Positions 7,083 through 54,521 of a stretch of DNA of 59,835 nt are shown here, piece after piece. The notes beneath the pieces were generated by a model. That model did no database searches, had not been told where the DNA came from, and was given only the letters and a program-made list of their open reading frames with translations. This stretch comes from Alphaproteobacteria bacterium. GTDB lineage: Bacteria > Pseudomonadota > Alphaproteobacteria > UBA7887. A program made the position numbers and the translations under genes. The DNA is taken from assembly GCA_028289725.1 (NCBI GenBank), contig JANQOH010000396.1, positions 1-59,835 of the forward strand. Reading direction: 5' to 3'. The first letter of the stretch is position 1. Each line of letters starts with the position of its first letter.

Positions 7083-7210
7083 ACTCCCGCGATAACCCCG
7101 TTATCAGGACGGGTCCTCTCAGCTACAGTATGCATGAGAGTGAACGGTCGGTCTATTGCCGGCCGAACAAGGACAGCGGCCAGCGCTGCGATGGGGAGAG
7201 GATATCGGTT

Positions 7211-9981: not shown

Positions 9982-11156
9982 TGTGGCGCCGGGCGATCTC
10001 CCTCCTCTGGCTGCTCGCCGCCGCGGTGGTCCTTTTCATTGGCTTTGCCTTGTTTGGCCGGCCGGACCAGGTGCACGAAAGTGTGGAACGCGCCGGCGAG
10101 CTGGCTTCGGCGGCGGGCGACCTCATTGCCGACCGTGACGCGGACGATGACGACGATGACGAAGGCGGAGCCAATCACGCCGCAATCGAAGACGACGATG
10201 ATGATGATAGGGACGACGATGACGAAGCCACGCGGGTGGTGGTCGTCGACGGTGTCCCCGTGGTTTTTCTTGACGACGAAGATAGACAACGCGTCGGCAT
10301 CGAGACGGCGATGCTCGCGCGCACAGAACATCGCGCGGAAATCGTCGCCATGGCTTCCGTGGTCGACATACAGCCGATGTTGGCGCATCGCGGACAGTGT
10401 TTGGGCGCGGTCTACGAGGTTGAACTGGCGCAAACACGATTGGCCGCGGCCGAGCGAGAGTACGAACGGTTGCGCAAGCTCAATCAAGACGACGGAAACG
10501 TTGCCGCGAAGCGCGTCCAAGAGGCCGAGGCGAAAGTTCAAATCGATCGTGTTTCCTTGAACCAATCCCAAGCTGCCTTGGACACGCTGGTCAACGAAGC
10601 GCGGCAAAGCTGGGGGCCCGTTCTCGCGGAGTGGCTGATTGGCGAACAAGTTCCGGCCCTCACCCGCCTGGTTGAGAATGAGGACGTCATGCTCTTGGTT
10701 GTCTTGCCGCGTGGCGAGTCCTTGCCCGCCGATGTGCCGCAAGCCTGGATCAGTAGCTTGCAAGACAATGGCGACCAACAGTTGGCGCACTTCCTATCGC
10801 GCGCACCCTACACGGATCGGTTGGCCCAGGGCGAAAGCTATTTCTATCGCACCGCCGCCGACGGCTTGCGCGCGGGCATGCGGGCCGAGGCGCGCATCGC
10901 GACCAATGCGGTTGCGGCCGACGGCGTGCTGATACCGGACAGTGCCGTGGTCTGGGCTCTGGGTCAGGCATGGGCCTACCTTGCGCTGGATGATGATCAT
11001 TTCGCGCGCATCCCCGTCGCGACGGATCGCGAACTTGCCGATGGCTGGTTCGTGACCGATGGCGTTGCGCCAGGAGAACGGATTGTCGTCACCGGCGCTC
11101 AGACGCTTTATGCGGAGGAGTTTCGCTGGCAGGTGTTTGAGGAAGACGATGATTGA
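9981..11156 (+). CDS. RND efflux periplasmic adaptor (membrane fusion protein) with N-terminal poly-Asp tract
   Basis: N-terminal TM anchor, alpha-hairpin segment (AQTRLAAAEREYERLRKL...AKRVQEAEAKVQIDRVSL) and C-terminal beta domains ending GAQTLYAEEFR. It lies between the OMF and RND genes. Confidence 0.75.
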   Translation: MWRRAISLLWLLAAAVVLFIGFALFGRPDQVHESVERAGELASAAGDLIADRDADDDDDDEGGANHAAIEDDDDDDRDDDDEATRVVVVDGVPVVFLDDEDRQRVGIETAMLARTEHRAEIVAMASVVDIQPMLAHRGQCLGAVYEVELAQTRLAAAEREYERLRKLNQDDGNVAAKRVQEAEAKVQIDRVSLNQSQAALDTLVNEARQSWGPVLAEWLIGEQVPALTRLVENEDVMLLVVLPRGESLPADVPQAWISSLQDNGDQQLAHFLSRAPYTDRLAQGESYFYRTAADGLRAGMRAEARIATNAVAADGVLIPDSAVVWALGQAWAYLALDDDHFARIPVATDRELADGWFVTDGVAPGERIVVTGAQTLYAEEFRWQVFEEDDD

Positions 11157-11201
11157 CCAACGGTCAATCGGCGTTACGGCGCGGCCCGGGAGCGATGCCT
11201 G

Positions 11202-14200: not shown

Positions 14201-14357
14201 CGGCGGATTGGCCTCCTCGACCGCGCTCAATCTGCTCATCCTCCCCGCAATCATGCTCAGATTCGGCCGTTTCAAGCGTCGCGATGACGTCGCGGTCTCG
14301 ACGCACCGGAGCGAAGCCGGTATCACTGCCGCATCGCCGCTCACGCCCGGCGAATAG
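11202..14357 (+). CDS. RND efflux permease, CusA/CzcA-like (COG3696-type) inner-membrane transporter
   Basis: 1051 aa with 12-TM RND architecture. The N-terminus (DIFPEFSPKLVILQTEAHGLSAEEVEVLVTQPIE) resembles the CzcA/CusA family. The TM4 motif reads GEVVDDAIIDTEN. Confidence 0.9.
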   Translation: MLGAIVRWSIRFRGLVVALACLMLAYGGYRLAGAGLDIFPEFSPKLVILQTEAHGLSAEEVEVLVTQPIESALGGLARLEFMRSESIQGLSVINLIFEEDMDLLEARQLVSERVARVGATLPEGLGPPVMVPLTSSSATVKTIGFTSDTMSLMDLRTMVEWSVAPRLLRVLGVADLNIFGGDERQLQVRVTPEALRRHNVSLSALADAAGAATGVRGAGVIQTPNQQIALRTDGLPRDAEDLGQIVVAASAAGTIRIADVAEVAYGAAIPISKAQIMGQPGIVVMVIGQRGADTLGVSDQLEEALTEFDTVLLDAGVTLHPNLFRPADYIERSLENIIGHLTVGGLLVIGVLLVFLFNLRAAFISASAIPLSLMAAALVLIEMGVSLNIMVLGGLAIALGEVVDDAIIDTENIFRRLRENRLRDDPLPDDEVVYRASMEVRSSVVHATFIVALVFVPLLTLSGVAGRMFEPLGIAYILAILASLLVALTVTPALSAMMIVGRNLSAMDPPVVRAINRPYGGILNAIGRVPRLTSIAILALCGYGLGLLPGLGGEFLPDLREGHYMIHTSGVPGTSLDETIRTGTQITHEVLELPGVRSVSQWAGRAERGADTYGSHYSEYEVDLELLSGPEQQEVLEGIRDILRDFPGVSFEANTFLIERVDETISGYTAPVVVNIFGNDLDELDRKALEIARIMESIPGATDVQLRAPPGTPVLGVRLQPERLARWGIKPLTVMEAVQTAYEGLQVGEIYEGNWVVPVAVVLDPVVRSKPTSLARLPIPAADGTLVALEELADIQHQSGRYAILRSGAQRVQTVTGNVSGRDLASYFNELKSRVRAEVSLPATSYLEFTGSAAARAASQEELIVHSLLAGVGIMLILFAALKNGRNTLLVMVNLPFSLVGGVIAALVTGATLSLGSLIGFVTLFGITLRNSIMLVSHYQHLVVDEGRSWNLKTAIEGAKHRLPSILITALGTALAMLPIAVDSDNPGREIMGPMAAIIIGGLASSTALNLLILPAIMLRFGRFKRRDDVAVSTHRSEAGITAASPLTPGE

Positions 14358-31187: not shown

Positions 31188-32237
31188 CTACTCTTTCTTT
31201 TCTTCTTCCACCACCACAGGCGCGGCTTCATCGGCCCCGGCGATCTCAAACCCGGGCTCAAAACCAAAACTCTTGGCAATACGATAAGAATGTTTGGCCC
31301 TGGTCTCGTATCGGATGACGCGCTGTTGATGCGCCGCGCGATCTGAGCGGCTTCTCGGCTTTAGCTTGCTCATGATCGTGTAGGTATCGCCCATTTCCTT
31401 ATGCGCGCCGGCATGGCGTCTTGGAAAGGCTTCCACGGTAAAAACTGCCAGGGCCTTTTCGTAGGTCTTGATCGCTTCCGTTAGCTGACGGTGACGATAG
31501 CCTTGCTCCGCTAGCAGAATGTATGCGCGGCTTACTTCCATCAGCGTTTCGCCGTGGGCGATCGGTTGCTCAAGTGGCTTCGCGATGCGCAGCGCCTCCT
31601 CATAGTGACGCATGGCGTTGTCCAGGGGATTTCGATCTGGGTCCAATTCGTGCAGACGTCGGTGCGCGTTGCCGACAAGGCGCAAGCCTGTCGCGTACAT
31701 GCCGGCATCTGCCTTGTCCGACAACACCGCAAGACCATCTTCGAACGCTGTGATGGCATTTGGAATTGGGGCAGCATCGCCAGTGCCTTGCGATAGGGTA
31801 AGGTACGCATCACCGATCCGATAAAGGATTTCACTATGAGTTCGGGGATCCGTCTCGGCCGGCCGCAAAGACAAGGCGTTACGATAGGATTCGATGCCTT
31901 TCTCGATGTCGCCTTTTTCGTTTCCAGACGCAGCGAGTCGAACAAGACTGGTACCAACACGGTCGCGAAGCTCGCTCTCGACCAACGGCGTGAGATCTTC
32001 GGGGAAGCCTGTCAGCACATAATCATATTCGCTCAGTGCCGTTTCGTACTTCCCGCGTAGGAAGAGTTTGTTCGCGCGATCAATCTCGTGCTGGATCATC
32101 GCCTCGCGTTCAGCCGCCTGCCGCGGCCGCACAACAGTTTCAACGTAGACAGTCGCTTGCCAGATCGACGCTGCGAGCAGGCCTAGAATGAGCGTGCTAA
32201 TGGTCTTTGGGAAACGACCGAGAAATCTTCCGATCAC
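31188..32237 (-). CDS. Membrane-anchored tetratricopeptide (TPR) repeat protein
   Basis: N-terminal TM (ISTLILGLLAASIW) followed by repeated A/Y/L-spaced 34-residue helical pairs. Last gene of the PQQ-dehydrogenase operon. Confidence 0.7.
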   Translation of the reverse strand: MIGRFLGRFPKTISTLILGLLAASIWQATVYVETVVRPRQAAEREAMIQHEIDRANKLFLRGKYETALSEYDYVLTGFPEDLTPLVESELRDRVGTSLVRLAASGNEKGDIEKGIESYRNALSLRPAETDPRTHSEILYRIGDAYLTLSQGTGDAAPIPNAITAFEDGLAVLSDKADAGMYATGLRLVGNAHRRLHELDPDRNPLDNAMRHYEEALRIAKPLEQPIAHGETLMEVSRAYILLAEQGYRHRQLTEAIKTYEKALAVFTVEAFPRRHAGAHKEMGDTYTIMSKLKPRSRSDRAAHQQRVIRYETRAKHSYRIAKSFGFEPGFEIAGADEAAPVVVEEEKKE

Positions 32238-32318: not shown

Positions 32319-32840
32319 CTAACTCGGTTTCGCGTTGGCCGGAGGTAGATCGATCGGAAACTCGACGGCCATAACCGAAGCCTGACCACCCATGCGCATC
32401 GAAATCCAATGGCTCGTAAATGTCACGGTCGATGCGCCTTCCGGATACACAAAGGTGAAGCTCGCGCTCTTGCTCTTCTTTCGATCGACGGCGGTCACCT
32501 CTTCGGAGATACCTTCGACATCAATCAGCTCGAACTCGGCCTGGGATTGATTGTCGGTCAAATAAATCGTCTGCAAATATTGATCTTCCAAGAAGATCGG
32601 TCGGCCGTTCGAGGCATTATTGCGAACACGAATGGAAATGCTCAGTTTGTCGCCAATACGTTCGACGCGTCGCAAGGTCCAGCGCCAATGATTCCGCTCG
32701 GAAACCTTTTGGTTTAGGTCGGCGCGCCAGTCCGCGCCCGCCAAGGCAGGCGCTTCGTCTTGCGCGACACTGAGTGGCATGGCCCCGAAACTTACGGCCG
32801 TTGCCAGAATGACTGAGAAGAAAAAGTGCTTAAACCGCAT
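32319..32840 (-). CDS. Periplasmic hypothetical protein (173 aa, beta-rich)
   Basis: Cleavable signal peptide MRFKHFFFSVILATAVSFGAMPLSVAQ. No recognised family. Same strand as the cytochrome c and PQQ-dehydrogenase genes, 105 nt downstream of the cytochrome c gene. Confidence 0.6.
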   Translation of the reverse strand: MRFKHFFFSVILATAVSFGAMPLSVAQDEAPALAGADWRADLNQKVSERNHWRWTLRRVERIGDKLSISIRVRNNASNGRPIFLEDQYLQTIYLTDNQSQAEFELIDVEGISEEVTAVDRKKSKSASFTFVYPEGASTVTFTSHWISMRMGGQASVMAVEFPIDLPPANAKPS

Positions 32841-32945: not shown

Positions 32946-33986
32946 CTACTCGATATAGGACAGATGTGCGCGGACTTGGGCCAATCCGCCTTCGCCTTCT
33001 TCCCAAGAGACATTGCCATCACCGTTGGCGTCGACCCCATTGAGAATCCAGTCGATCCGCTCGACGATTTCCTCAGCATAGAATGCTGATGAAACCGGGG
33101 ATGCACCACCAATAATTTGACCCGCCTTATCGACGGTCTTGCCCGCCCAAAATTGAATATTTCTTGCCGATGCTAACACGTGCTCCGCATGGATCTTCGC
33201 GCTCTCGCTTGCGTCCCCGGCGTCCCGCGCGAACTCCATATGCTGAATAATGCCTGCCGCCGCCTTGACGATCCCGTATCCCATACCCGGTCCTTCACCC
33301 GACCGTTCCTTTGTCGGGTCGACCGCATGGCGCACGTGGCGGGTGTGGAGTTGGATGTTCGGCAGGTCTTCCAAGTCGGTGACCGCATAGCCCGCATGCT
33401 CTTTCGCGATCATGGCTTCTTGCTCGAGGATCGTCGCCAGTCCGACTTCACCCGGCGTGTCGGTCCAACTGGTCAAAATATGTCCAATGTGGATCTGGTA
33501 CTCTTTTGGTTCCGCCGGTTCGCTGGTGGTCGAAGAGGCAGGAATGACCTGCCCCTCCTCTTCAACTTCAGACGTCTCGTCGGGGTCCGCCCAATTGGCG
33601 TTCCGTTTGGCGAGCGTTTCGAGATAGGCGCCGATCTGGTTGATTTGCTCGTCGCTAATCTCGCCCATCCCGCCCCACTCCGGCATGGTCTTGTAACCTT
33701 CCTTTACGGTCTGAACGAACTTCGTGTAGCCGCGCTTAAACTTGCGCAGGTCGGCTGAGTTCGGGAGGCCCCGACCGCGGCCGTCGGCTCGCATGCCGTG
33801 GCAATAGGCGCAGTTCGCACGATAGATCGTTTGCCCCGCCGCTTCCGCTTCTTTGTCGCCGGAGAGCGGATTGGGCGATTTCTTACCTTCTTCGCCAACG
33901 GCTTCCGCAATATTGCCGCCGCCGGCCCAAACCATCGCCGCCACCATCGCGACGCACGCGGCCAGCGTCAGTCGCCTTAATGTCAT
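32946..33986 (-). CDS. Cytochrome c (mono-haem CAYCH) fused to a His-rich helical C-terminal domain ending in an EF-hand loop
   Basis: Signal peptide, haem motif CAYCHG with distal KTMPEW. C-terminal DANGDGNVSWEE (nt 32997-33032). ATG 33986 is preceded by GAGGA. Confidence 0.8.
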   Translation of the reverse strand: MTLRRLTLAACVAMVAAMVWAGGGNIAEAVGEEGKKSPNPLSGDKEAEAAGQTIYRANCAYCHGMRADGRGRGLPNSADLRKFKRGYTKFVQTVKEGYKTMPEWGGMGEISDEQINQIGAYLETLAKRNANWADPDETSEVEEEGQVIPASSTTSEPAEPKEYQIHIGHILTSWTDTPGEVGLATILEQEAMIAKEHAGYAVTDLEDLPNIQLHTRHVRHAVDPTKERSGEGPGMGYGIVKAAAGIIQHMEFARDAGDASESAKIHAEHVLASARNIQFWAGKTVDKAGQIIGGASPVSSAFYAEEIVERIDWILNGVDANGDGNVSWEEGEGGLAQVRAHLSYIE

Positions 33987-34013
33987 TCTTTTTATCCTCG
34001 CAGTTTTAGGAAA

Positions 34014-34043
34014 GGGATGGCGCGCCGCTAGGCACGCCATCCC
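34014..34043 (-). promoter_or_regulatory. Intercistronic stem-loop between PQQ dehydrogenase and cytochrome c genes (9-bp perfect stem, 12-nt loop)
   Basis: GGGATGGCG-cgccgctaggca-CGCCATCCC. On the minus strand it is followed only by TTTCC, so it is more likely a processing/stability or partial-termination element than a full terminator. Confidence 0.4.
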
Positions 34044-34079: not shown

Positions 34080-35774
34080 TTACAGGCCGAACGTCACCAT
34101 GATGCTCGAGTGATTGATCGGATTGTCATCCGGTGCCGAACCGAAGAGCGGCAAACCGCCGAGGGCAAACGTGATGTATTGTTGGCCGTCGACCAAATAG
34201 GTCGATGCCCCCGAATGCGACGTGGAGTTGGTGTTGAACGTGTACAACGTTTCACCCGTAGTCGCATTGGCCACCGTCACCAAGCCGCCTTGAGTCGCGA
34301 AAATGGTCAGGTTGCCTGCGGTGGTCAACATACCGCCGGCATCGCCATCACGCGATTCGCCGATCCGCCAAACTTCTGCCCCAGACTTGAGATCGTGCGC
34401 CGAGTTGACCTGTGAGCCACCGGCCATAATCTCGAATGTCGCGCCGAGATTTTGGACATTGCTGGTCACTTGGACTTTCTCGAGCACGTAGCTCATCCTG
34501 TTTTCACGACGCGGCAGATAGACCATCCCGGTGTCTGGGTTGAGTGCCGACGGAGACAGGTTCACCGAACCAAGAAGGCTCGGCCAGATCTCGACGGTCT
34601 CGCCCTCAGGTGGAATTGGCGTATCCCAGATCGGGTTGCCATCGGCGTCATAGCCCTTGGCCCAGTTGATCTTATCCGCGTGCTGCGGCGCTTGGAGAAA
34701 CTCGCCCGTGGCCGCATCGAGATAATGGGTGTAACCAGTCTTGTTTGGCTGAACGATCGTCCGCCGACCATCGATCGTGGCAAGCATCGGTGTTTGAGGC
34801 GTATCGTAATCCCACGGATCGCCCGGCACCGCCGTGTAGCGCCACTTCACTTCACCGGTCTCAATGTCCACGGCCGCGATCGCCGCCGCGCCTTCGTTGC
34901 GCATGCCGCCGGCACCGGCGCCGTCGCGTTCGGTGTACGGGTTCCATGGATACGCGTTTGCGGTCCCCGTGAAGTACAAATTGAGCTCAGGGTCGTACGA
35001 GCCGATGATCCAAGGGCCGGCACCGCCATATTCGCGGCTATCGCCCGGCCACGTATCGCCGCCTGGCTCATCCGGACCTGGGATCATGTTGGCGGCCCAA
35101 AGCTGTTCGCCGGTCTCAAGATCGTGACCATGGACGTAACCCTGGAGGCCGCCTGTATCGGTCGCGTTCATCGGAACGATCAGGGCACCCGGCACAACCA
35201 TTGGTCCTGAGGTGCAGAAATACCCGTTTGAATCGTCGGCTTGTTCGAAATCCTTCGGATACGGCCGATCGATTTTGTGAGTAAAGATCTCATCGCCGGA
35301 CTTGGCGTTGAGCGCGACGATCGTGCACTCATTGGTCACGAAGTAAACATTGTCGCCGCCGAGCGCGACGCCTTTGTGCTTACCGGTGAAGAAAGGCACA
35401 AACTGGCCGCCCCAGTCTTCCGGCAATTCCCACTCATACTTCCAAATGCGAGAGCCCGAACGGGCATCTACCGCGTGCACCATATTGTCCTGCGGCAAAT
35501 ACAAGATGCCGTCGGAATAAAGCGGTGTCGCTTGCGCGTCGGTCTCGCCGCCGATCGAATAGATCCATTTGACGTTCAAATCACCGGCATTGTTCGGGTT
35601 CAACTGCGTCAACGTGCTGTAACGCGTGCCGTCCCAATTGCCGTTGATATGAAGCCATTCGCCGCCCGCGGGCCGTGCCAGATCTTCATCCGACACAAAA
35701 GCCTGCGCCGCCGTCGACGCCAACACCAGCGCCGAGGCGGCCGCGAGCAATCCAGTGATTCTGGTAACGCTCAT
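34080..35774 (-). CDS. PQQ-dependent dehydrogenase, methanol/ethanol family (divergent)
   Basis: Signal peptide and an eight-bladed propeller pattern (GNWDGTRYSTLTQLNPNNAGDLNVKWIYS...). The catalytic region is PGDPWDYDTPQTPML. GGGAGGA SD lies 8 nt before ATG 35774. Confidence 0.9.
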   Translation of the reverse strand: MSVTRITGLLAAASALVLASTAAQAFVSDEDLARPAGGEWLHINGNWDGTRYSTLTQLNPNNAGDLNVKWIYSIGGETDAQATPLYSDGILYLPQDNMVHAVDARSGSRIWKYEWELPEDWGGQFVPFFTGKHKGVALGGDNVYFVTNECTIVALNAKSGDEIFTHKIDRPYPKDFEQADDSNGYFCTSGPMVVPGALIVPMNATDTGGLQGYVHGHDLETGEQLWAANMIPGPDEPGGDTWPGDSREYGGAGPWIIGSYDPELNLYFTGTANAYPWNPYTERDGAGAGGMRNEGAAAIAAVDIETGEVKWRYTAVPGDPWDYDTPQTPMLATIDGRRTIVQPNKTGYTHYLDAATGEFLQAPQHADKINWAKGYDADGNPIWDTPIPPEGETVEIWPSLLGSVNLSPSALNPDTGMVYLPRRENRMSYVLEKVQVTSNVQNLGATFEIMAGGSQVNSAHDLKSGAEVWRIGESRDGDAGGMLTTAGNLTIFATQGGLVTVANATTGETLYTFNTNSTSHSGASTYLVDGQQYITFALGGLPLFGSAPDDNPINHSSIMVTFGL

Positions 35775-36232
35775 CAACCCTTCCTCCCTTTATGAATTCT
35801 TATAACGCCCTGGACGTAGAAGGTTTTAAGTCCACGCGTTGTTCGAGCATCGCATCAAAACAGCCAAAAAGCAATCGACGGAGAATGGCGAAATTGCTGT
35901 GTTTTGAGCACATGCGGGCCGTCGGTCCGCATCAATACAACCGATAAACAACCACTAGAAAGTGCTTGGAATGGCTAACTTTTTGAAACGCCCTATCGGG
36001 CGAGCTCCAGCCGCGTTGTGACTAGGTTCGGTGAACCGACTTCGCGCCTGGATTGGGAGCCAGGTGCCCGAAGGAGCATCTTGTCTCACGCGGCCGAGCG
36101 CTGCGTCCGGTGTGGCACTTCGATTGACAAGGCTAGATATCGCTCTTAAGGTGCCGCGCCATAGACGATAGCATGCTATAAGTGTATGATTATTATATAG
36201 ATTTCAGAACAATGAAGGACTCGCCAAGTGCG

Positions 36233-36248
36233 CAGTGATATCTGTCAC
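36233..36248. promoter_or_regulatory. Near-consensus CRP-type palindrome AGTGA-TATCTG-TCACA ~90 nt upstream of the motA/exbB-like gene
   Basis: Read directly; 9 of 10 half-site positions match TGTGA-N6-TCACA. Located in an AT-rich spacer. Confidence 0.25.
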
Positions 36249-36329
36249 AGTAATGGGGGCTTTGATGTGAGTATTGGTGTCTATTTTATTGAGTAGGTAG
36301 CATTGGGCACGGGGAACGGGAAGCGCCAT

Positions 36330-37037
36330 ATGGGCGGACAGATGAACAATCCGAACGCGCTGCTGTACAAGTGGCTCGTGATCAATTCTTTCGCGGCCCT
36401 TCTGGTATACATCGCTTGGCTGCGCGATTGGATTAGCTTGGTCGTGGAAAGTGATGCAAGCTATCTGAGTATAGTAATAGGATTGGTTTTTCTCGTTTTC
36501 TGGCTGACGAGTTCTTTCCACATCTTTACCATTAACCGGGAAGTCGGCCTGTTTGCGAGTGGCGCGAAGTCGGGCGCGGCAGCGGATTATTTCGAGCGCC
36601 TGCGCCGCAAAGCCGCCAATCTGGCCGGCGCAAAACTTGATCAAGCCATGCTGGCCAGTGCGTTGCGCGCGCGCATGTTTATGCCGATACAAATTGTGGC
36701 CTATGTGGCCAATGTATTGATCCTGCTCGGATTGATTGGCACGGTCGTTGGCTTCGTGATCGCCGTGAATGGGCTTGGCGACAGTATCGCCGGCGGCACC
36801 AATATCGAGCGTGTTCAAGGTGTGCTCGGTCAGATTGTGAACGGCATGGGCGTCGCCCTGTTCACGACATTGGTGGGGGCGATCTTGGGCGGCCTTTGGC
36901 TCCAAATCCATTACCAAATGCTGATCCGCGCGGTCGGCGGCTTGGTGGTCGATATCGTTGAACGTGCCGACATTGACGTGATCCCTGAAATCTTGCGGTC
37001 CGCCGAGAATCCGGTGGCGCAGGCCGCGGCCGAATAG
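36330..37037 (+). CDS. MotA/TolQ/ExbB proton-channel family protein (4 predicted TM helices)
   Basis: Signature segments LILLGLIGTVVGFVIA and GMGVALFTTLVGAILGG with the conserved Thr residues. Alternative starts at TTG 36303 and ATG 36342. Confidence 0.8.
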   Translation: MGGQMNNPNALLYKWLVINSFAALLVYIAWLRDWISLVVESDASYLSIVIGLVFLVFWLTSSFHIFTINREVGLFASGAKSGAAADYFERLRRKAANLAGAKLDQAMLASALRARMFMPIQIVAYVANVLILLGLIGTVVGFVIAVNGLGDSIAGGTNIERVQGVLGQIVNGMGVALFTTLVGAILGGLWLQIHYQMLIRAVGGLVVDIVERADIDVIPEILRSAENPVAQAAAE

Positions 37038-37058
37038 GCTTGTATAGGGCGCGCGGCG

Positions 37059-37655
37059 GTGTCTGATTTCGACATTCTTGGCGGGCAGAACGAAGACCCT
37101 TCATCAATTGCGTTCCGCGATATCCTGTTTTTGATGGTGTTCAGCTTGGTGGTGGTGATCTTTCTCCTCACCTTCCTGATCAATCCCGTTCCGAAGCCCG
37201 ATGATGTGCCGCTCCGTACGCAGATTTTGATCGAGGCGACGTGGCCATCGGGCACAGCATATGACATCGACCTTTGGGGCATGGGGCCTGATGGTGTTCC
37301 TGTCGGCTGGGGCATCTACGAAGCGGGCCCAGCTCTAAACCTGGAGCGCGACGACCGGGGCAAAATCAACGACCTGTCCGAATTGAACTATGAGTGGATG
37401 TCGATCCGGACCCGTGATGCCGGCGAATACGTCATCAATATCCATCTGTACAATGAGTACAAGGAACCGCTGCCGGTTCCGGTTAAAGTCCGGGTGACCG
37501 GCAAGGGCGACATCGGCGAGATCTATGAAGCCGAGATCCTGATGGAACGCCGAAAGGAAGAGGTCACGGTGGTGCGCTTCCGCCTCGATGAAGATGGGAA
37601 GCTTGTCGATGACAGCATCCATAACTTGCACCGGTCCATCCTGACCGAGCGTTAG
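37059..37655 (+). CDS. ExbD/TolR/MotB-like single-TM protein (conserved TM-edge Asp) with unrecognised ~150-aa periplasmic beta-rich domain
   Basis: SIAFRDILFLMVFSLVVVIFLL compares with ExbD ...FIDVMLVLLIIF and MotB ...YADFMTAMMAFF. GTG start lies 21 nt after the upstream stop. No OmpA-like or TonB-like motif was seen. Confidence 0.55.
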   Translation: MSDFDILGGQNEDPSSIAFRDILFLMVFSLVVVIFLLTFLINPVPKPDDVPLRTQILIEATWPSGTAYDIDLWGMGPDGVPVGWGIYEAGPALNLERDDRGKINDLSELNYEWMSIRTRDAGEYVINIHLYNEYKEPLPVPVKVRVTGKGDIGEIYEAEILMERRKEEVTVVRFRLDEDGKLVDDSIHNLHRSILTER

Positions 37656-37663
37656 GCGGCGCG

Positions 37664-38119
37664 ATGTCGGAGCTGCTTGTCTTTATCATCGTCTACGCCC
37701 TGCACGCGGCGACCGTGTGCTTTTTGTTCGTGATGTTGTTCGTGCACGACGTCAGGCGCTGGTGGCTTAAAGCGGCCGCGCTGGCATTGGGACTCGGCGC
37801 GTTGATCTTGCCGCTGAACCTGGCGAATAAGACACTCGGATATCCCGACCCCTGGCCCTTGCCTGGCCGCTACGACGTTTTGGGTTGGGACGTTGATGAG
37901 TCGGGCGGCGCGCTGTTCTTGTTTGTCATGCGGCCCGACGGCTCGGAACCGTATCATTTGCGGGTGCCCTTCGAGCTTGGCATTGCGCTTAAACTCCAGG
38001 AAGTCGCGGAAGAGGTTAGTATCTACAAGCAAATCACCGTCGACATCTTTCCGGAGACGACAGAATACGGTCCGAAATATGCGTTCAACATTGAACGCGT
38101 CTTCAAGGACGATGAGTAG
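37664..38119 (+). CDS. 2-TM membrane protein with periplasm-facing C-terminal domain (hypothetical), paralogue of 38148-38633
   Basis: Two hydrophobic helices separated by the basic loop HDVRRWWLK, then LGYPDPWPLPGRYDVLG.... The start lies 8 nt after the upstream stop. Confidence 0.6.
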   Translation: MSELLVFIIVYALHAATVCFLFVMLFVHDVRRWWLKAAALALGLGALILPLNLANKTLGYPDPWPLPGRYDVLGWDVDESGGALFLFVMRPDGSEPYHLRVPFELGIALKLQEVAEEVSIYKQITVDIFPETTEYGPKYAFNIERVFKDDE

Positions 38120-38147
38120 GGCGCAATGCGGAAAGAGATAGGTCCAG

Positions 38148-38633
38148 ATGCCGTTTGATTTCGACACGCTGAATTGGGGAACGCTGCTGATCGCGCACGT
38201 CGTGTGCGTCGCTGTGGTTTTGGTCGCGATCTTCTATCGGCGGCGTTGGCTCAAACCGATTGCGGTTATCGCCGGTGCCGTCGCGCTGTGGCTGCCGCTT
38301 TTTGCGTTGCTCGACACACTGGGACTGCCGAACCCCTATCCACCGCACGGCGACTACCGCTTGATCTCTTCGAAGTACGATCAGGAGAGCGAAACCCTCT
38401 ACATGTTCGTCGACACCATGGGTCGCGATTTCACGCCGCGCGTATTCGGCATGTATTTCGATAAAAGCCGCTATGATCGATCGAACCAAAACGTCGATTA
38501 CAGCGCGGTCGTAATGCGGTTGGGCAACAATGCCGGTGGCGACTACGAAGTCGTTTATGTCGACTACGAACCGCCGGACCTTCTGAAAGACGGCATGATG
38601 CGGGGCTGGCAGGCGCCACGCGAGACGGACTAA
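38148..38633 (+). CDS. 2-TM membrane protein with periplasm-facing C-terminal domain (hypothetical), paralogue of 37664-38119
   Basis: Same layout with basic loop YRRRWLK, then LGLPNPYPPHGDYRLIS.... About 40% identity to the upstream ORF over a 58-residue block aligned by hand. Confidence 0.6.
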   Translation: MPFDFDTLNWGTLLIAHVVCVAVVLVAIFYRRRWLKPIAVIAGAVALWLPLFALLDTLGLPNPYPPHGDYRLISSKYDQESETLYMFVDTMGRDFTPRVFGMYFDKSRYDRSNQNVDYSAVVMRLGNNAGGDYEVVYVDYEPPDLLKDGMMRGWQAPRETD

Positions 38634-38639
38634 AAAGAC

Positions 38640-38660
38640 GGCCGGGAGAAGCTCCCGGCC
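38640..38660. terminator. Hairpin terminator between convergent genes (9-bp stem GGCCGGGAG/CTCCCGGCC, loop AAG); U-run on the minus strand
   Basis: On the minus strand the stem is followed by GTCTTTTTA, which fits a terminator for the amidohydrolase gene. On the plus strand it closes the four-gene operon 7 nt after the stop. Confidence 0.6.
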
Positions 38661-38684
38661 GCTCACGTTCAGACGTGTACGCCG

Positions 38685-40193
38685 CTAGACGGTGACACGC
38701 GGAATATAGCCATAGCTTGTATTGGTTCGCAGCGAGTCGAGTTCGCCGCGCGCCCGATACTCGTCTTTGATTTGTGCGAATTTGTCCTCGGTAAACCGGG
38801 GATAGTCCGCACGCAAATCGAGATTGTAGAGACGCGCCGAATTGAAGCCGAATATCTTGTTCTTCACCGCGCTGTTCGGTCCACCGAGCGCGGCGAAGCC
38901 ATATTTCTCCTGCATCTCTTCGGGGATCTCCAGACGACGCATGGCTTCGATCTGCCATTGCGGTGACCCGTGCAACACCGAGTCCGTGCCCCACACCACG
39001 TTGTCGGCGCTGAGGCCTTTGATCCACGTGCCCAACATGGCGGCCGCGAACCGTGGGTCTGCCACGCAGGTCGACGCAAAGCTCGTGCCCATCTCCGCGT
39101 AGACGTTGCTGACGCCAGCCTTCTCCGGCACCTCGGCAAGATCGCTCGCCCATTCGATGCGTCCGGTCTCGACGAACTCCTTATAGGGTTCGCCCGGCAC
39201 ATCCATCAAAGGCCGAAGGCAGCCGTGATAGATGACGAAGTTAATGTCGGGCCAGTCTTTCGCCGCTTTCAGCAAATCGCGCGGCGTTTGGTACTGCCAA
39301 ACATCCGGCCAGCTCGTCTCATAGTCCTTCGGCATCAAACCCTTGTGGATGCACATGGTGTTGATACCGGCCTTGAGCGCTTTTTCGTAGAACGGGTAAA
39401 TCAGCTCTTCGTCGTCGAGCCAGAACGGATATTTGGTCTCGGCGGTTAGCGGGTCGCCGATCGTGTACAGCTTCCAGCTCGCCGGCGGCCTTTCTTCGAG
39501 CGCCTTGTCGACTTCATCCATCCAACCCGGTTGACCTGGCCGCACGACGGCATGACCGAGCATGCGGGTCGATTCCGCGGTCGCGTTGACCATTTGTACC
39601 GCTTCCGCAATCGCTTCGTTGGTCAGGAACTCCCATGAGCTATCGTCAAACGGTGCGCCGGATAGCACCGAGACCGAGGTGTCGCTGTTGAGGTAGATCT
39701 CACGCACATAGTTTTCGAATTTGAGGTTGTACATCGTGACGGTTTCGGCATCGACGTCGCTACCCCAAATTTCAGATCCCGCCTTGATGAATCCCAAGAA
39801 ACCTTCTTGCGTATAGTTGTCGTGCACAAAATGAGTTTGCACATCGAATATGAACTGCCCCGCGGTTTTTGAGGCACGCTCGTCCGCGGCATCGTGGTTG
39901 GCGGCTTCGGCGACAGATACATCGAAGATGTCGCCATAGACTTCGTTCATAGCAAGAAATGCGGCCGCCATTCCTGAGCTCGTTTTCAGAAATGCGCGGC
40001 GATCCATGCCGCGTTTGCCGCCGTGCAGGTCCGCCAGCTCCTTAATGCGTTCCTCGACTTGCTTTTGCTGTCTTGACTGTGGCGGCGGATTGAACTCGCC
40101 GTTCGAGATCACTTGCGTTGGGATCGGTGAATGAAACGCGCTTTCGGCGGTTTCAACTTGTTGGAATTCTCGTTCGCTAAAAAAGGTCCCCAT
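38685..40193 (-). CDS. Amidohydrolase-family metal-dependent hydrolase with twin-arginine motif
   Basis: RRAFLKTSSGMAAAFLA, then FDVQTHFVH and downstream His/Asp motifs of the amidohydrolase-2 type TIM barrel. Strong SD GGGAGGTG before ATG 40193. Confidence 0.8.
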   Translation of the reverse strand: MGTFFSEREFQQVETAESAFHSPIPTQVISNGEFNPPPQSRQQKQVEERIKELADLHGGKRGMDRRAFLKTSSGMAAAFLAMNEVYGDIFDVSVAEAANHDAADERASKTAGQFIFDVQTHFVHDNYTQEGFLGFIKAGSEIWGSDVDAETVTMYNLKFENYVREIYLNSDTSVSVLSGAPFDDSSWEFLTNEAIAEAVQMVNATAESTRMLGHAVVRPGQPGWMDEVDKALEERPPASWKLYTIGDPLTAETKYPFWLDDEELIYPFYEKALKAGINTMCIHKGLMPKDYETSWPDVWQYQTPRDLLKAAKDWPDINFVIYHGCLRPLMDVPGEPYKEFVETGRIEWASDLAEVPEKAGVSNVYAEMGTSFASTCVADPRFAAAMLGTWIKGLSADNVVWGTDSVLHGSPQWQIEAMRRLEIPEEMQEKYGFAALGGPNSAVKNKIFGFNSARLYNLDLRADYPRFTEDKFAQIKDEYRARGELDSLRTNTSYGYIPRVTV

Positions 40194-50229: not shown

Positions 50230-50601
50230 ATGACCCGCGAGGAAATCCTCGCGCAATTGCGTGGCGTCCATTTACCGCCGTCGGCTGTGGATTCCGGCGA
50301 AGTCGTAATCGCCCTGTGGCCGCTTTGGACATTTCTTGCAATCGTTCTTTTGCTCGCCGCCGTCCGCTGGTGGCGCCAGAACACCTGGCGGCGCGAGGCG
50401 CGGGCCGCACTCGGCCAGATCGAGGCGTTGGCGGACCCGATCGCGCGCTGGGACGCGTTGCTCGATTTGTCGATCCGTATTGCGCACGTCCGCGATCGAG
50501 TTGAGCCGCTTCCGGCGCTTGCCTATCGGGCGCCGGAAACCATTGCGGACGATGACACGCGGGCTCTCGCCAAACACATTCGCGATCGGCTCAATAGATG
50601 A
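50230..50601 (+). CDS. DUF4381-like small membrane protein of Bat/MoxR-type operons
   Basis: LRGVHLPP...ALWPLWTFLAIVLLLAAVRWWRQNTWRREA pattern. The stop overlaps the downstream VWA gene. Confidence 0.55.
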   Translation: MTREEILAQLRGVHLPPSAVDSGEVVIALWPLWTFLAIVLLLAAVRWWRQNTWRREARAALGQIEALADPIARWDALLDLSIRIAHVRDRVEPLPALAYRAPETIADDDTRALAKHIRDRLNR

Positions 50602-51533
50602 TTGAGCTTGTCCGACCGTGGGCCTTCCTGCTGCTTCCGCTGCCGTTGCTCGCGTGGTATTTGCTCCGCCCCTTGCCTGCGCGCGCCGCTGTGCGCGTTC
50701 CTGGCGGAATTCGAGACCTGCTATTTGGCATGACCGTGCAGCGGCGGCATGAGGCGCATCATTCGCGGGTCGCGCTCCTGCTTCGCGGTTTGGGATGGTT
50801 CGCGCTGATTGTTGCTTTGGCGGGGCCATACACGCGGGGGCCCGAACTTTCCAAGCCATCCGGGCGCGATTTGATCGTCGCGCTGGATCTGTCATCGAGT
50901 ATGGACGAGAGCGACATGACGCTCGATGGCCAAGAAGTGGCGCGCTATCAAGTCGTGCGCCGCTTTATCGGTGACTTCCTGGCGGCGCGCCGCGGCGATC
51001 GCGCGGCCTTGATCGCTTTTGGACACGAGGCCTATCTCATCGCGCCGCTGACATTCGACACGCGGGCGGTTGCGCGAACGCTCGATGAATTGGTGATTGG
51101 CCTGTCCGGTCATCGCACCGATCTCGGACGCGCCGTGGGCTTGGCGGTGCGGTCGCTTCGCGATGAGCCGAGCGGGTCTCGGGTCTTGGTCATCCTTTCG
51201 GATGGCGAAGACAATACCGGTGAGCTCACCGGTCTCGATGCGGCGCGCATGGCCGCGATGAATGATCTCAAGATTTACACGATCGGGTTCTCGGCCGAAC
51301 TCAATAGCGACGGTGAGAGCATTCTGAGCCAGATTGCCGAGACGACGGGCGGCGCGTTTTATCACGCGGCAAGTGCCGAAGAACTGGTGCGGATTGCGCA
51401 AATGATTTCCGGGTCCGAGCAAATCACTGCTGATGCGGAGGCGGCATTTGTCGTTGAGGACTGGACGCCTGTGCCACTCATTCTGGCGGTGCTGCTGCTT
51501 GCGGGTATCGCAGTGCACAATTCGAGGGAATGA
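50598..51533 (+). CDS. VWA domain protein (BatA-like), membrane anchored
   Basis: Two N-terminal TMs, intact MIDAS motif DLSSSMDESD, VLVILSDGEDNTG, C-terminal TM. Confidence 0.85.
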   Translation: MIELVRPWAFLLLPLPLLAWYLLRPLPARAAVRVPGGIRDLLFGMTVQRRHEAHHSRVALLLRGLGWFALIVALAGPYTRGPELSKPSGRDLIVALDLSSSMDESDMTLDGQEVARYQVVRRFIGDFLAARRGDRAALIAFGHEAYLIAPLTFDTRAVARTLDELVIGLSGHRTDLGRAVGLAVRSLRDEPSGSRVLVILSDGEDNTGELTGLDAARMAAMNDLKIYTIGFSAELNSDGESILSQIAETTGGAFYHAASAEELVRIAQMISGSEQITADAEAAFVVEDWTPVPLILAVLLLAGIAVHNSRE

Positions 51534-52390
51534 TGACGCTCATTTACCCGATGGCCCTTATCGCGCTGATCCCAATGCTGGCCGTGTCGTTCTGGCTGGG
51601 TCGGCGCGTGGCCAGCACAGGCCTGGCTCTGCCTGGTGATTGGCCGAAAGCGATCGCGGTTCCGCTGCGTGCGTTAATGACCCGCGCCGCGATTCGGAGC
51701 ACGACGCCGGATACCTGGCTCGTCACAGCTCTTGCCGTCGTGATCGTTGTCGCGATCGCGCGGCCGACCATTCCTCTCGATCAGAATCAATCCTTCACCA
51801 ACATCGCCGGGCGTGTAATTGCGCTCGATTTGGGGAGCGGCGCCGACATTCACAGCCAGCGCCACGCGGTGCGCACCCTCGTCGCCGACGCGCCGGGTGT
51901 GCCGACGGCCCTCGTCGTGGCGACCGCGGACGCTTACGACGTTGTGCCGCTTACCACCGATGCGGCGTTTATCGAACGGTACCTTAACGTCGTCGCGCCC
52001 GATGTCATGCCGCTCGAGGGTCGCTCCATGGCGGTTGCCCTGACCCACAGCGAAGATGTCTTGGCGCGGGCAAATATTGTGGTGGGGCAGATCATTTTGG
52101 TCAGCGGCGGTGCGGCGCCGGATCCGCACATCCGGCCGGCAACGCAATGGCAAAGAGCGGTGGTCGTGCCGGACCGTGCCGATGGCGATTGGCCCGGCTA
52201 CGCCGACGATATCGATGCGCGCCTCCGCTCCTATGACGACCTTGCCGACATTTCGCGCGAGTTCTTGCGCGCCGTTGAAAAGGTTCGTCTGCATAGCGAC
52301 CCGGAATCTCATATTGAGATGACGCCCTATCTGATCGGCTTGGCCTTGCTGCTATGGGCGGGACTTTTCCGCCGTCGGAGAGCCGTATGA
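51530..52390 (+). CDS. BatB-like membrane protein with degenerate VWA/MIDAS
   Basis: Same TM-VWA-TM layout, but the MIDAS position reads ALDLGSGAD instead of DxSxS. Start and stop overlap the neighbouring genes. Confidence 0.55.
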   Translation: MMTLIYPMALIALIPMLAVSFWLGRRVASTGLALPGDWPKAIAVPLRALMTRAAIRSTTPDTWLVTALAVVIVVAIARPTIPLDQNQSFTNIAGRVIALDLGSGADIHSQRHAVRTLVADAPGVPTALVVATADAYDVVPLTTDAAFIERYLNVVAPDVMPLEGRSMAVALTHSEDVLARANIVVGQIILVSGGAAPDPHIRPATQWQRAVVVPDRADGDWPGYADDIDARLRSYDDLADISREFLRAVEKVRLHSDPESHIEMTPYLIGLALLLWAGLFRRRRAV

Positions 52391-53193
52391 GAGGGCGCCT
52401 AATCGCGCTGGGTGTTGGTCTGCTGATCAGCATCGCGCTGGCTTGGCTGTGGCCGCGCGTGATTGAGCCCCCAACCCGTCATTTCGTCGCCAAATCACTG
52501 CTCGAGGACGGGCGGCCGCAAGATGCGGTTTTATTGTTTGAGGATCGGTTGTGGCGCGGCGTCGCGGAATATGAGTCGGGCCGGTATGCGCGCGCCGCCG
52601 ACGCCTTCTCGCCGGCCGAAACTGTATTGGAGAACTACAATCTAGGCACAGCCTATGCCCAGCTAGGGCAATTGGGCGACGCGATCACGGCCTACCAGCG
52701 TGTTTTGCGGCTGGACCCCAACCATCATGACGCGCGCCACAATCTCGAATTGGTTCTTTTGGCCGCCAACATGGGTGCGCGCGAAGTTTCACCGCCTCAG
52801 ATCGAATTCACGCCGCGCGATGGCGGCGGCGCCGATGGTGGCGACGAAACCGAAAATGAAGGCAAACCGAACCAGCAACCACCCAGTCAATCCGAAACAA
52901 CCAACAACGAGAGCGAAGACGCCACCGATCAGGGTTCCGGGACAGGAAATCTGCCTGGCGACGTGGGCGATGGCGAGGCGCCGGACTCGTCGGAAACGGC
53001 AAAAATCGCCAGCAAACCGCCGGACGCAACCGGCCACGAAACGCCGGAGGGCCGCGGGTCGGTGGATTTGCTGGCACGGGAGAGCACGCAGGCAGCGGAG
53101 ATCCTGCTTCGCTTGATTACCGACGACCCCCACAAAGTCTTGCGCGTTCGACTGCACACCGCCCATCAGAACCGCGGGACACAAGTGCCGTGA
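52387..53193 (+). CDS. TPR-repeat protein (BatC-like) with acidic low-complexity C-terminal half
   Basis: N-terminal TM, TPR units (NLGTAYAQLGQLGDAITAYQRVLRLDPNHHDARHNLE). ATG 52387 overlaps the upstream stop (ATGA). Confidence 0.7.
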   Translation: MRGRLIALGVGLLISIALAWLWPRVIEPPTRHFVAKSLLEDGRPQDAVLLFEDRLWRGVAEYESGRYARAADAFSPAETVLENYNLGTAYAQLGQLGDAITAYQRVLRLDPNHHDARHNLELVLLAANMGAREVSPPQIEFTPRDGGGADGGDETENEGKPNQQPPSQSETTNNESEDATDQGSGTGNLPGDVGDGEAPDSSETAKIASKPPDATGHETPEGRGSVDLLARESTQAAEILLRLITDDPHKVLRVRLHTAHQNRGTQVP

Positions 53194-54521
53194 TGCGCGT
53201 TCTCGGTGTGTTTTGCATTTTGTTGGCGCATATTGCGACGGCTCGTGCGCAGGAGGACGTCATTCCGCTCGACCCCGAACTGCGCGTGATCGTCGAACCA
53301 TTCCACGTCCTTAGGAACGGTGCCTACGTCCAAGGCCAGATCCGATTGCGGATCTTGCTGCTGTCGCCACATCCGTTTGAAACGCTCCATTTCCAACAGC
53401 CTATGTTGGACGGCGCGACAGTCGTGACATTGTCGCCGCCGCGTACACGGGCCATTACCCACTACAGCAAACCCGGCTTCGGCTACGAGACCACCTTGGC
53501 CGTGTTTCCGGAACGCAGCGGCACGCTGACGATCCCGGACATCACAATTACGGGGGAAACGGTGTCGGCCGAAGGCGGCTCCGAGTCTTTCTCGACGCAC
53601 GGCGATGCAACCGAAATCCCCGTTCACCCGATTGATCCGTCATTTGCAGACAAATGGTGGTTGGTCGCCAATGAAATCCAGATCGAGGAGCAGTGGACGC
53701 CGGCTCCGGACACGGTGGTGGCGGGCGGCGTGGTCGAGCGACGTGTGGTGATGACGGTCGACGGCGCGCGCCTAGCCCAATTGCCGCCGCTGACACAGTC
53801 CGAAGGTGACGGTTATGCGGTGGTGGGCGAGACCGGTCAGCAAAGCATGGAACTGACCAAACTCGGCGTTGTCTCGCGGGTCGAGCGCGCTTGGCAGTTG
53901 CGGATGCTGAGCGACAATGTCGTCAAGGTCAGCCCGATCCTTGTCGATTATTGGGATCCGGGAGCAAATCAAGCTGCGGTGGCGACGCTTCCAGGAAAAC
54001 GCATTGAACCATTGGCCCGCGATGTTGCGGCGGCGGCCGAGGGCTTGATCGAAGAAGCGGCGAGCACGCACCGCGGTCGTCAACTCGGTGCGCTGCTTCT
54101 GATGGCAATACCAGTCCTGGTCCTGGTCGGTCTGTTGTTGAGCCTCGTGTTTTGCATGTGGCCAACCCGTGCGGATCGAACCTTGGTCCGGGCGTGTCGA
54201 AGTGCCGACAGTCCATCCGATGGGTTTGCGGCGGCGTTGGATTGGGCAAGGGCAACCTATCCGAAATCGGGCGGCGTACCGCTGGCCACCGCTAGAGCCA
54301 ATCTCGGCGCGCGCGGCGCCGCGGCCCTCACACGCATGCAGTCAGCTTTGTTTTCGCGCACGGCGCCGACGGCTGACATGGATCTCGACGCGCGGGAAAT
54401 TGTGCGGGCGGCGCGTCGCGCACGGCTTCGGTCATTTGTTCGGCGTATCGCGGCTTGGCTCTCCGGCGCTGTCCAAGCGCGCCCGCTCGAACCGAGGGCT
54501 CGCAGCGCGCGCCGGGCGTGA
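53190..54521 (+). CDS. BatD-like (oxygen-tolerance family) exported protein with C-terminal TM
   Basis: Signal peptide, repeated beta-rich domains, a late TM (LGALLLMAIPVLVLVGLLLSLVF) and operon position after a TPR gene. Confidence 0.65.
   Translation: MMRVLGVFCILLAHIATARAQEDVIPLDPELRVIVEPFHVLRNGAYVQGQIRLRILLLSPHPFETLHFQQPMLDGATVVTLSPPRTRAITHYSKPGFGYETTLAVFPERSGTLTIPDITITGETVSAEGGSESFSTHGDATEIPVHPIDPSFADKWWLVANEIQIEEQWTPAPDTVVAGGVVERRVVMTVDGARLAQLPPLTQSEGDGYAVVGETGQQSMELTKLGVVSRVERAWQLRMLSDNVVKVSPILVDYWDPGANQAAVATLPGKRIEPLARDVAAAAEGLIEEAASTHRGRQLGALLLMAIPVLVLVGLLLSLVFCMWPTRADRTLVRACRSADSPSDGFAAALDWARATYPKSGGVPLATARANLGARGAAALTRMQSALFSRTAPTADMDLDAREIVRAARRARLRSFVRRIAAWLSGAVQARPLEPRARSARRA

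Follow-up and report, generated by a model that had tools for sequence, protein, structure and literature searches.

A conserved gene triad encoding a putative ion-driven membrane complex in marine Alphaproteobacteria and in phages

Four genes and the proteins they encode

We studied a stretch of 59,835 nucleotides from an alphaproteobacterium of lineage UBA7887 (GenBank assembly GCA_028289725.1, contig JANQOH010000396.1, positions 1 to 59,835), hereafter called the window, and in particular four consecutive open reading frames of its + strand (ORF1-4; 36303-37037, 37059-37655, 37664-38119 and 38148-38633). A first-pass annotation, made from the letters of this DNA alone, had described them as an orphan operon of the MotA/ExbB stator type with uncharacterised periplasmic partners. 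All four ORFs and their gaps of 21, 8 and 28 nt were recovered as described when we recomputed them. In what follows, ORF1 is called the A subunit, ORF2 the B subunit, and ORF3 and ORF4 the C subunits; TM stands for transmembrane.

36330-37037, + strand: ORF1, A subunit, divergent channel protein of the MotA/TolQ/ExbB family (Pfam PF01618)
37059-37655, + strand: ORF2, B subunit, one TM helix and a predicted periplasmic beta-sandwich (AlphaFold2)
37664-38119, + strand: ORF3, C subunit paralog 1, predicted two-TM hairpin and small periplasmic beta-barrel (AlphaFold2)
38148-38633, + strand: ORF4, C subunit paralog 2, ORF3-like architecture with a conserved C-terminal tail (PPDLLKDGMMRGWQAP)

The longest reading frame of ORF1 begins with a TTG at 36303. 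The public gene call on the identical contig starts at the ATG at 36330, giving a protein of 235 aa, and relatives conserve the ribosome-binding region of ORF1 and 'ATGGGCGGA'; this ATG is probably the true start. Four TM helices are predicted in ORF1, and its cytoplasmic loop is short (about 50 aa). The profile PF01618 matched residues 119-214 with 31.4 bits (gathering cut-off 22.9; E 1.8e-7), relatives of ORF1 scoring 34-36 bits, so that the membership in the MotA/TolQ/ExbB family proposed from the letters was borne out by a score above the gathering threshold. The two segments on which this proposal rested (LILLGLIGTVVGFVIA; GMGVALFTTLVGAILGG) are present, and their core residues are invariant across the family: 'LGLxGTxxGF' and 'GMxVAxxTTLxG' (L133, G134, L135, G137, T138, G141 and F142; G172, M173, A176, T179, T180, L181 and G183) are kept in an alignment of 23 diverse members, together with an Asp where TM2 begins on the periplasmic side.

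The polar residues of the ion path are found in the last two TM helices of ORF1 and align to the corresponding segment of ExbB. With hhalign, the ORF1 family was aligned to Escherichia coli ExbB with an E of 4e-4, over TM2-TM3, the last two helices. The closest PDB match of the family profile was MotA (8gqy, E 1e-4), with ZorA (8vvn) and TolQ matching weakly, and a sequence search of the PDB with ORF1 gave only marginal matches. ZorA came first in the NCBIfam list, at 19.3 bits for a ZorA_2 cut-off of 100, and PADLOC gave weak ZorA matches over about 60 residues of the channel core. With ORF2-4 unmatched, the locus is not recognised as a Zorya system (ZorABCD or ZorABE). By its sequence, ORF1 is a deep-branching member of the MotA/ExbB/TolQ superfamily.

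The AlphaFold2 model of ORF2 (mean predicted local distance difference test score, pLDDT, of 82) consists of a TM helix (14-41) and an eight-strand beta-sandwich, joined by a linker that is disordered and short (about 14 aa). The single TM segment bearing an Asp that the annotation had pointed out corresponds to helix 14-41, which holds Asp21. As in ExbD and TolR, this single helix is N-terminal and its Asp lies near the cytoplasmic end. We checked the conservation of this residue, and it was kept at all three levels: Asp21 is invariant in the close clade and occurs in 135 of 146 representatives sharing at most 50% identity, as well as in 73 of 74 viral homologs. The best local hhalign alignments place Asp21 on Asp25 of ExbD and on Asp32 of MotB; these alignments are not significant.

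Apart from this helix, ORF2 showed nothing in common with the known partners of such channels. It has no match in Pfam, NCBIfam, PADLOC or PHROGs, and no ExbD or TolR profile of Pfam or NCBIfam reached E <=1. The hhalign comparison of the ORF2 family with E. coli ExbD and TolR stayed at noise level (probability <1%), and that with MotB covered the TM segment only (probability 0.3%). The modelled sandwich is not the periplasmic alpha/beta domain of ExbD and TolR, and neither MotB_plug nor OmpA, expected for a MotB, PomB or ZorB protein, was matched. The sandwich has its own invariant residues (W62, D69, D71, D98, D99, G101, E112 and G122) and further conserved ones (R97, D105, N110, R117, Y124, N127, H129, E168 and T170), an unusually dense invariant polar set. 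On the strand order and a simple up-down topology, from which the placement was derived without model coordinates, D69/D71, R97-D105 and N110/E112 should share the membrane-distal tip.

Among PDB structures, the best Foldseek matches of ORF2 were 2qng, a protein of unknown function (E 5e-5), then the Ca-bound protein 2lge; DUF4425 proteins were matched as well. No ExbD, TolR or OmpA-like fold was among the matches, and among viral models the matches were all phage proteins lacking a name or a characterisation. Against PDB sequences, the ORF2 profile yielded nothing above noise (Internalin K, filamin Ig-like repeats). A C2-domain-like lipid binding was considered for ORF2; the fold search did not convincingly recover it and it is not proposed.

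ORF3 and ORF4 had been taken for paralogous two-TM proteins, in agreement with BLASTP (E 3e-10, 41% identity over 58 aa) and with the two TM helices predicted in each. In the AlphaFold2 model of ORF3 (mean pLDDT 77), a TM hairpin with a basic, cytoplasmic connecting loop is followed, about 10 residues past TM2, by a beta-barrel with one helix. A histidine, His14, lies in the middle of TM1. Position 14 is His or Tyr in 42 of the 43 C sequences aligned: in the marine clade, both paralog types together, it is His in 25 of 27 (the remaining two have Phe or Tyr), and in Thiotrichaceae it is Tyr. P50 and G59 are invariant in the same alignment. The ORF3 barrel has no significant fold match in the PDB; its weak matches are OB-like or SilF-like, the comparison with SilF reaching a probability of 0.97 and a TM-score of 0.60 (normalised to SilF) with an E of 0.15. 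A CcmE-like haem chaperone was also considered; nothing convincing was recovered by the fold search and we do not propose it. ORF3 and ORF4, like ORF2, had no match in Pfam, NCBIfam, PADLOC or PHROGs, so that none of the three partners was placed in a characterised family by these collections, as the annotation had anticipated. Their two TM helices, the lack of a spanning linker and the lack of a TonB or TolA fold match also set them apart from TonB and TolA.

These results bear on the simplest alternative, i.e. that the locus is an ordinary ExbB-ExbD-TonB or TolQRA set diverged past recognition. The order of a channel gene followed by a gene for a single-pass Asp protein is indeed that of exbBD and tolQR. 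This explanation is already contradicted by the beta-sandwich modelled for ORF2 in place of an ExbD/TolR fold, by hhalign scores at noise level with ExbD and TolR, by the lack of any ExbD, TonB or TolA model at E <=1, and by the large size of the family, which is well conserved internally around invariant residues of its own; we regard it as hardly credible.

The A-B-C unit in bacteria and phages

Close homologs of ORF2 form 88 clusters, all unnamed, from marine Alphaproteobacteria, Kiloniellales and SAR324. A search of 1.84 billion representatives (of clusters at 50% identity) with a B profile returned 1,964 of them at E <=1e-3 and 1,462 at E <=1e-10, and a broader B profile reached at least 5,259 clusters at 90% identity. 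No Pfam domain is found in members of the B family, all of which are named 'hypothetical protein' in their sources.

We then surveyed one genome per species, which gave 56 loci with B (designated below by L numbers). A lies directly upstream of B in 44 of them, including every locus of the marine clade and of Thiotrichaceae with enough upstream flank. Outside the marine clade, a single gene of about 165-220 aa follows B and belongs by profile alignment to the ORF3/ORF4 family. Since this single third gene is of the same family, the conserved unit is the triad A-B-C, C being duplicated in the marine clade of the window. The four-gene operon first described thus stands for its order and not for its number: the gene set is kept in order across phyla, as the synteny check shows, and the pair ORF3/ORF4 is a lineage-specific duplication. 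That the quartet is more than a chance assembly is confirmed, as the quartet or its three-gene core keeps its order in dozens of genomes. Moreover, start and stop codons often overlap in the triads of Thiotrichaceae, Alphaproteobacteria and phages, which suggests co-translation of a complex.

The cultured strain Cocleimonas flava DSM 24830 carries the triad, and so do Azospirillum chromids, where each record has two matching places. One SAR324 metagenome-assembled genome (MAG) has, in addition to a standard quartet beside a PQQ (pyrroloquinoline quinone)-dehydrogenase gene (L002), a second locus of five genes in the order B'-A-B-C-C', followed by an Amidohydro_2 gene (L004, 8001-11115). A soil subclade of B occurs in Xanthobacteraceae/Hyphomicrobiales MAGs (L038-L047; e.g. 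L044 9953-10594) with the motif 'FDPFxVxLFKALQ'. At least in L043 and L044 of this subclade, B adjoins DUF1800/DUF1501-like genes, as judged by eye.

The triad was also found in viruses. By tblastn, the B domain was detected in 29 isolated Rhizobium and Sinorhizobium phage genomes. In the temperate rhizobiophage 16-3, p038 corresponds to A, p040 to B and p042 to C (hhalign probabilities of 87.5%, 99.7% and 96.9%, with E of 3.6e-6, 2.6e-26 and 1.8e-10, respectively). From IMG/VR, we retrieved 227 viral contigs with a B relative, using a broad B alignment (patterns from the marine clade alone had matched nothing). Among the best 80 of these 227 contigs, to which the counts of gene neighbours apply, A lies directly upstream of B in 66 and a C homolog follows B within some 2 kb in 61; the full triad is present in 50. 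The median length of viral A proteins is 164 aa. Without any TM2-TM3 cytoplasmic loop, these mini-A versions still come up to the Pfam cut-off with PF01618 (26.8-31.1 bits). PHROGs had no match for any protein of the window or of phage 16-3, and a paper on a close relative of phage 16-3 does not mention the counterparts of p038, p040 and p042.

Genes for a secreted protease of the trypsin-like kind and for a lysozyme are the commonest viral neighbours. In the two temperate rhizobiophages examined, the triad lies near immX (16-3) and near attL (RHph_TM3_3_14B), with a trypsin-like peptidase gene just upstream of it in both. In Rhizobium phage RHph_TM3_3_14B, A and B of the triad are separated by an inserted gene for a Seg-like homing endonuclease (L154, 4159-4917). 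The triad is also carried by phages of 150-170 kb with tRNA arrays.

Such a distribution could be that of a phage-conflict module, found in prophages and bacteria and acting in Zorya-like defence or superinfection exclusion by sensing envelope perturbation and dissipating the membrane potential. Carriage by 29 isolated rhizobiophages and 227 IMG/VR contigs, the position near immunity and attachment regions (immX, attL) and the varied chromosomal contexts outside the marine clade are consistent with it, as is the fact that weak ZorA matches to the channel core were the only PADLOC matches, ZorA also being first in NCBIfam and 8vvn a weak PDB match. However, no effector or cytoplasmic signalling part is encoded: the long tail of ZorA as well as ZorC and ZorD are absent, the phage A lacks a cytoplasmic domain altogether, and B and C have no PADLOC match. 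In the window, the surrounding genes are metabolic rather than defensive, and the linkage of the bacterial module to a metabolic cluster across phyla (see below) is unlike a defence island. The large phages with tRNA arrays also speak against this explanation, which we consider rather unlikely.

Neighbouring genes and intergenic features

The locus is flanked by the following features.

31188-32237, - strand: TPR protein of the conserved PQQ-dehydrogenase neighbourhood
32319-32840, - strand: secreted 173-aa protein, family unassigned, of the same conserved neighbourhood
32946-34040, - strand: linked gene for a cytochrome c fused to a His-rich helical C-terminal domain
34080-35777, - strand: periplasmic enzyme of the PQQ-dependent alcohol-dehydrogenase family, divergently upstream of the quartet
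35778-36329, no strand: divergent intergenic spacer between the PQQ-dehydrogenase gene and ORF1
38638-38662, no strand: G+C-rich hairpin of 11 pairs, including 9 G-C, between the convergent ORF4 and amidohydrolase genes
38685-40193, - strand: Amidohydro_2-family hydrolase, possibly linked; also beside the module in L001 and L004

The PQQ-dehydrogenase is closest to the lanthanide enzyme PedH. Its 'DYD' aligns with 'DFD' of PedH, a DYD/DFD-type motif being the mark of lanthanide-type enzymes. The vicinal Cys-Cys is missing ('VPFFTGKHKG' opposite 'RPCCDVINRG' in PedH), and the protein scores 350 bits for an NCBIfam methanol/ethanol-family cut-off of 480; it looks, from these residues, like a member of an atypical quinoprotein clade. 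In the cytochrome c fusion, an EF-hand-like loop (DANGDGNVSWEE) lies within the His-rich C-terminal domain, which is about 200 aa long. Other genomes have the cytochrome and the His-rich domain as separate proteins, and the fusion may be a metal-binding partner of the dehydrogenase.

Of the 21 loci of the marine clade, 15 have the PQQ-dehydrogenase/cytochrome c/TPR set beside the quartet, i.e. in 13 distinct places, L002, L003 and L016 being one SAR324 locus. The carriers are uncultured Alphaproteobacteria, Rhodospirillaceae, SAR324, Pelagibacterales and Tectimicrobiota/Entotheonella (four lineages), and the set stands to the quartet in at least three arrangements: divergent, co-directional downstream or co-directional upstream. 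Because the linkage is kept through these rearrangements, gene order argues for a functional tie between set and quartet in the marine clade. The locus can therefore no longer be called an orphan, as it is linked to a conserved cluster located divergently and directly upstream.

Among the ORFs of at least 230 aa in the window, we found none that belongs to the TonB, Tol, Pal, flagellar, gliding or Zor genes, the shorter ORFs having been partly scanned; to this extent, the absence reported by the annotation holds. A cation-diffusion facilitator is encoded near the triad in Thiotrichaceae. In L062 (11643-12098; same locus as L008), a gene of the PCuAC family (PF04314), a family of periplasmic copper chaperones, lies directly downstream of the quartet on the same strand, no PQQ-dehydrogenase gene adjoining the quartet there. 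Genes for NosR-like membrane iron-sulfur/FMN proteins occur beside the quartet in L001 (43-7115, two copies) and in L012 (11738-13946). RRAFLK near the N-terminus of the amidohydrolase was read by eye as a putative twin-arginine translocation (Tat) signal. Elsewhere in the window, a + strand run at 50598-54521 comprises a VWA gene, a gene for a 286-aa protein, a TPR gene and a gene for a 443-aa protein. Its gene content is presumably akin to that of the Bat aerotolerance operon and of the accessory genes MxaC/MxaL, the latter serving metal insertion into methanol dehydrogenase. Secretion and efflux genes with no relation to the quartet lie in the region 4-14357; they encode an HlyD-like protein, an RTX-repeat protein of 963 aa with 16 repeat stretches, and an outer-membrane-factor/RND efflux set.

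The PQQ linkage also invites the view that the module energises uptake across the outer membrane in the manner of Ton or Tol, importing lanthanide, Ca2+ or PQQ with ORF3/ORF4 in the role of TonB/TolA. The lanthanide-type DYD motif of the linked dehydrogenase, the acidic cluster of B, the EF-hand-like loop of the cytochrome c fusion and the mid-TM His of C, as in TonB and TolA (comparison: PMC12204202), all fit such a role. Compared with the SHLS motif of TonB/TolA, however, C lacks the Ser four residues before the His and the orientation of the helix is opposite. ORF3 and ORF4 have neither a periplasm-spanning linker nor a TonB/TolA C-terminal domain, the barrel starting about 10 residues past TM2. 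No TonB-dependent receptor was found among the window ORFs of at least 230 aa, nor among the Pfam-annotated genes of the related loci that we looked up, and the phage-borne copies would be left unexplained. Uptake of this kind therefore seems quite improbable to us.

A role in metal handling can be imagined without any motor, ORF1-4 forming a channel or chaperone for cations (Ca2+ or another metal) in which the B sandwich binds the metal and the C barrel is a CusF/SilF-type metallochaperone. The invariant Asp/Asn/Glu cluster of B, the Ca-bound protein as second-best PDB fold match of B, the weak SilF-likeness of the C model and the metal-linked neighbours (the PCuAC-family gene of L062, the cation-diffusion facilitator of Thiotrichaceae) point this way. 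The structural matches of C are however not significant, the metal-related neighbours are inconsistent between clades, and the TM Asp together with the Thr-containing MotA/ExbB motifs corresponds to the proton path of 5:2 motors. We hold this explanation to be very unlikely.

Regarding the intergenic features, the annotation had closed the operon with a 9-bp GC hairpin. The hairpin exists (9 G-C among its 11 pairs), and on the plus strand its stem comes after an A-tract. Because the T-tract is on the minus strand, the hairpin is best understood as terminating at least the convergent amidohydrolase gene, and it may work in both directions. Its region (38629-38683, - strand) has a sub-threshold Rfam match to the Salmonella small RNA STnc390 (23.7 bits for a gathering threshold of 50; E 0.05), almost certainly a chance likeness of terminator stem-loops, and the Rfam search of the locus and spacer gave nothing beyond this match. 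The spacer has one sigma-70-like match (36162-36190), and among close relatives only the ribosome-binding region and the start of ORF1 are conserved in it.

Finally, horizontal acquisition had been suggested from two AT-rich lines. The hand count of 26/60 G+C at 36421-36480 and at 36481-36540 is exact, and both lie within the lowest 1.3% of the 60-nt bins of the window. The G+C content at the third codon position (GC3) of ORF1-4 is 0.69-0.75, the same as in neighbouring genes, and the AT-rich stretch 36421-36540 codes for TM helices. Base composition therefore gives no support for a recent acquisition, and we rejected it as evidence of transfer.

Proposed mechanism and comparison with known systems

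We consider it fairly probable, by analogy with related machines, that ORF1-4 form one inner-membrane complex of an undescribed A-B-C family, working as a proton-driven 5:2-type motor with periplasmic output. B would supply the TM Asp, the proton carrier in MotB, ExbD and TolR, and protons would pass through A5B2 via Asp21 of B and the Thr residues of A, as in the solved 5:2 motors. By the same analogy, the A pentamer would turn around the B dimer, itself immobilised by its sandwich domain bound to a periplasmic ligand, for which peptidoglycan or a Ca2+-dependent partner are the leading candidates. The C subunits would use their TM hairpins to attach to the A ring, as a driven or regulatory element. 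Since A has only a small cytoplasmic part here and none in phages, the output would have to be in the membrane or periplasm only. Candidate roles are the support of PQQ-dehydrogenase in the marine clade and an envelope-directed function useful to phages; on the dehydrogenase side, a possible task is the maturation, the cofactor or metal supply, or the positioning of the enzyme system.

Several points weigh against this picture of a motor complex. ORF2 is, on present sequence comparisons, without statistically significant similarity to ExbD, TolR or MotB. The soil Hyphomicrobiales subclade has Val in the Asp21 column, with an Asp four residues upstream, and in 10 of its loci B has no A beside it; the periplasmic domain of B can thus evidently act without the A-channel arrangement. 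The A5B2 stoichiometry, the A-B-C contacts and the rotation are analogy throughout, and with a linker of about 14 residues the reach of B to the peptidoglycan is uncertain. As for the PQQ link, it is missing from the four close genomes L007-L010 and from every distant clade, where the neighbours are unrelated, so it cannot define the general function of the module.

If the motor interpretation of ORF1-4 is right, carriage by phages means that viruses may gain from a proton-driven periplasmic machine of their own, which bears on entry, exclusion or lysis. In abundant marine groups (SAR324, Pelagibacterales, uncultured Alphaproteobacteria), the linkage to PQQ-dehydrogenase and cytochrome c points to an accessory step in the periplasmic oxidation of alcohols in the ocean. 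Tractable carriers exist: Cocleimonas flava DSM 24830, Azospirillum brasilense, whose chromids each have two matching places, and the pair of phage 16-3 and Sinorhizobium meliloti.

Concerning known systems, only A belongs to a known family on profile and model comparisons, B failing as ExbD/TolR and as MotB and C failing as TonB/TolA. Full-text literature searches turned up nothing on the triad, on the phage 16-3 genes p038, p040 and p042, or on PQQ-dehydrogenase genes with a MotA-type neighbour, and the triad is not described in a 2025 phylogeny of MotAB relatives. No model of GldL, GldM, PorL or PorM was matched at E <=1, and sizes and architecture differ from those of GldLM/PorLM: GldL has two TM helices with a conserved Glu, and GldM one TM helix with a long four-domain periplasmic arm.

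With Zorya, the triad shares the nature of a non-flagellar MotAB-type pair on mobile elements, and the weak ORF1 matches are to ZorA. It differs in the size of ORF1 (235 aa, vs. about 700 aa for ZorA, whose long cytoplasmic tail is absent) and in having neither the peptidoglycan-binding domain of ZorB nor ZorC and ZorD. Another comparison concerns the motor-associated vWA 'force transducers' (PMC12204202; Mol Biol Evol 2025), i.e. TolQ-like motors with non-TonB partners and a conserved TM His. This recently proposed class shows that such modules are still being found; its proteins combine a vWA domain with a TonB-like single TM helix, whereas B and C have no vWA domain and another topology, and the A-B-C triad is not described in that survey of motor-linked transducers. 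The flagellar pairs MotA-MotB and PomA-PomB have in common with the triad a four-TM A and a TM Asp in B, and MotA 8gqy is the closest PDB match of the A profile. The triad lacks their large cytoplasmic torque domain, the MotB plug and the OmpA-like peptidoglycan-binding domain, and flagellar genes were not found in the window (ORFs of at least 230 aa).

The triad is most like the Ton and Tol motors (ExbB-ExbD-TonB and TolQ-TolR-TolA): a compact A with a small cytoplasmic domain, in PF01618 with the TM Thr motifs, is followed by the gene for a single-pass B whose TM helix has an Asp close to the cytoplasmic end, and a third membrane-anchored periplasmic protein is encoded alongside. The differences are that ORF1 has four predicted TM helices instead of three, that B is predicted to be a beta-sandwich with an acidic cluster and not an ExbD/TolR fold, and that C is modelled as a two-TM hairpin with a membrane-proximal barrel, without a long linker or a TonB/TolA C-terminal domain. 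In addition, the triad has phage-encoded versions and no known outer-membrane partner. To our knowledge, every 5:2 motor whose function has been characterised gave rise to a research field (MotAB, ExbBD, TolQR, GldLM, AglRQS, SiiAB, ZorAB). The triad sets itself apart by the very large size of its family, by its unmatched partners and by having no cytoplasmic signal domain of the kind found in other motors. We tentatively propose, at somewhat less than even odds, that it represents a distinct class of ion-driven 5:2 motor, minimal and near cytoplasm-less, with B and C as new families, shared with phages and recruited to a lanthanide-type PQQ-dehydrogenase module in some marine lineages.

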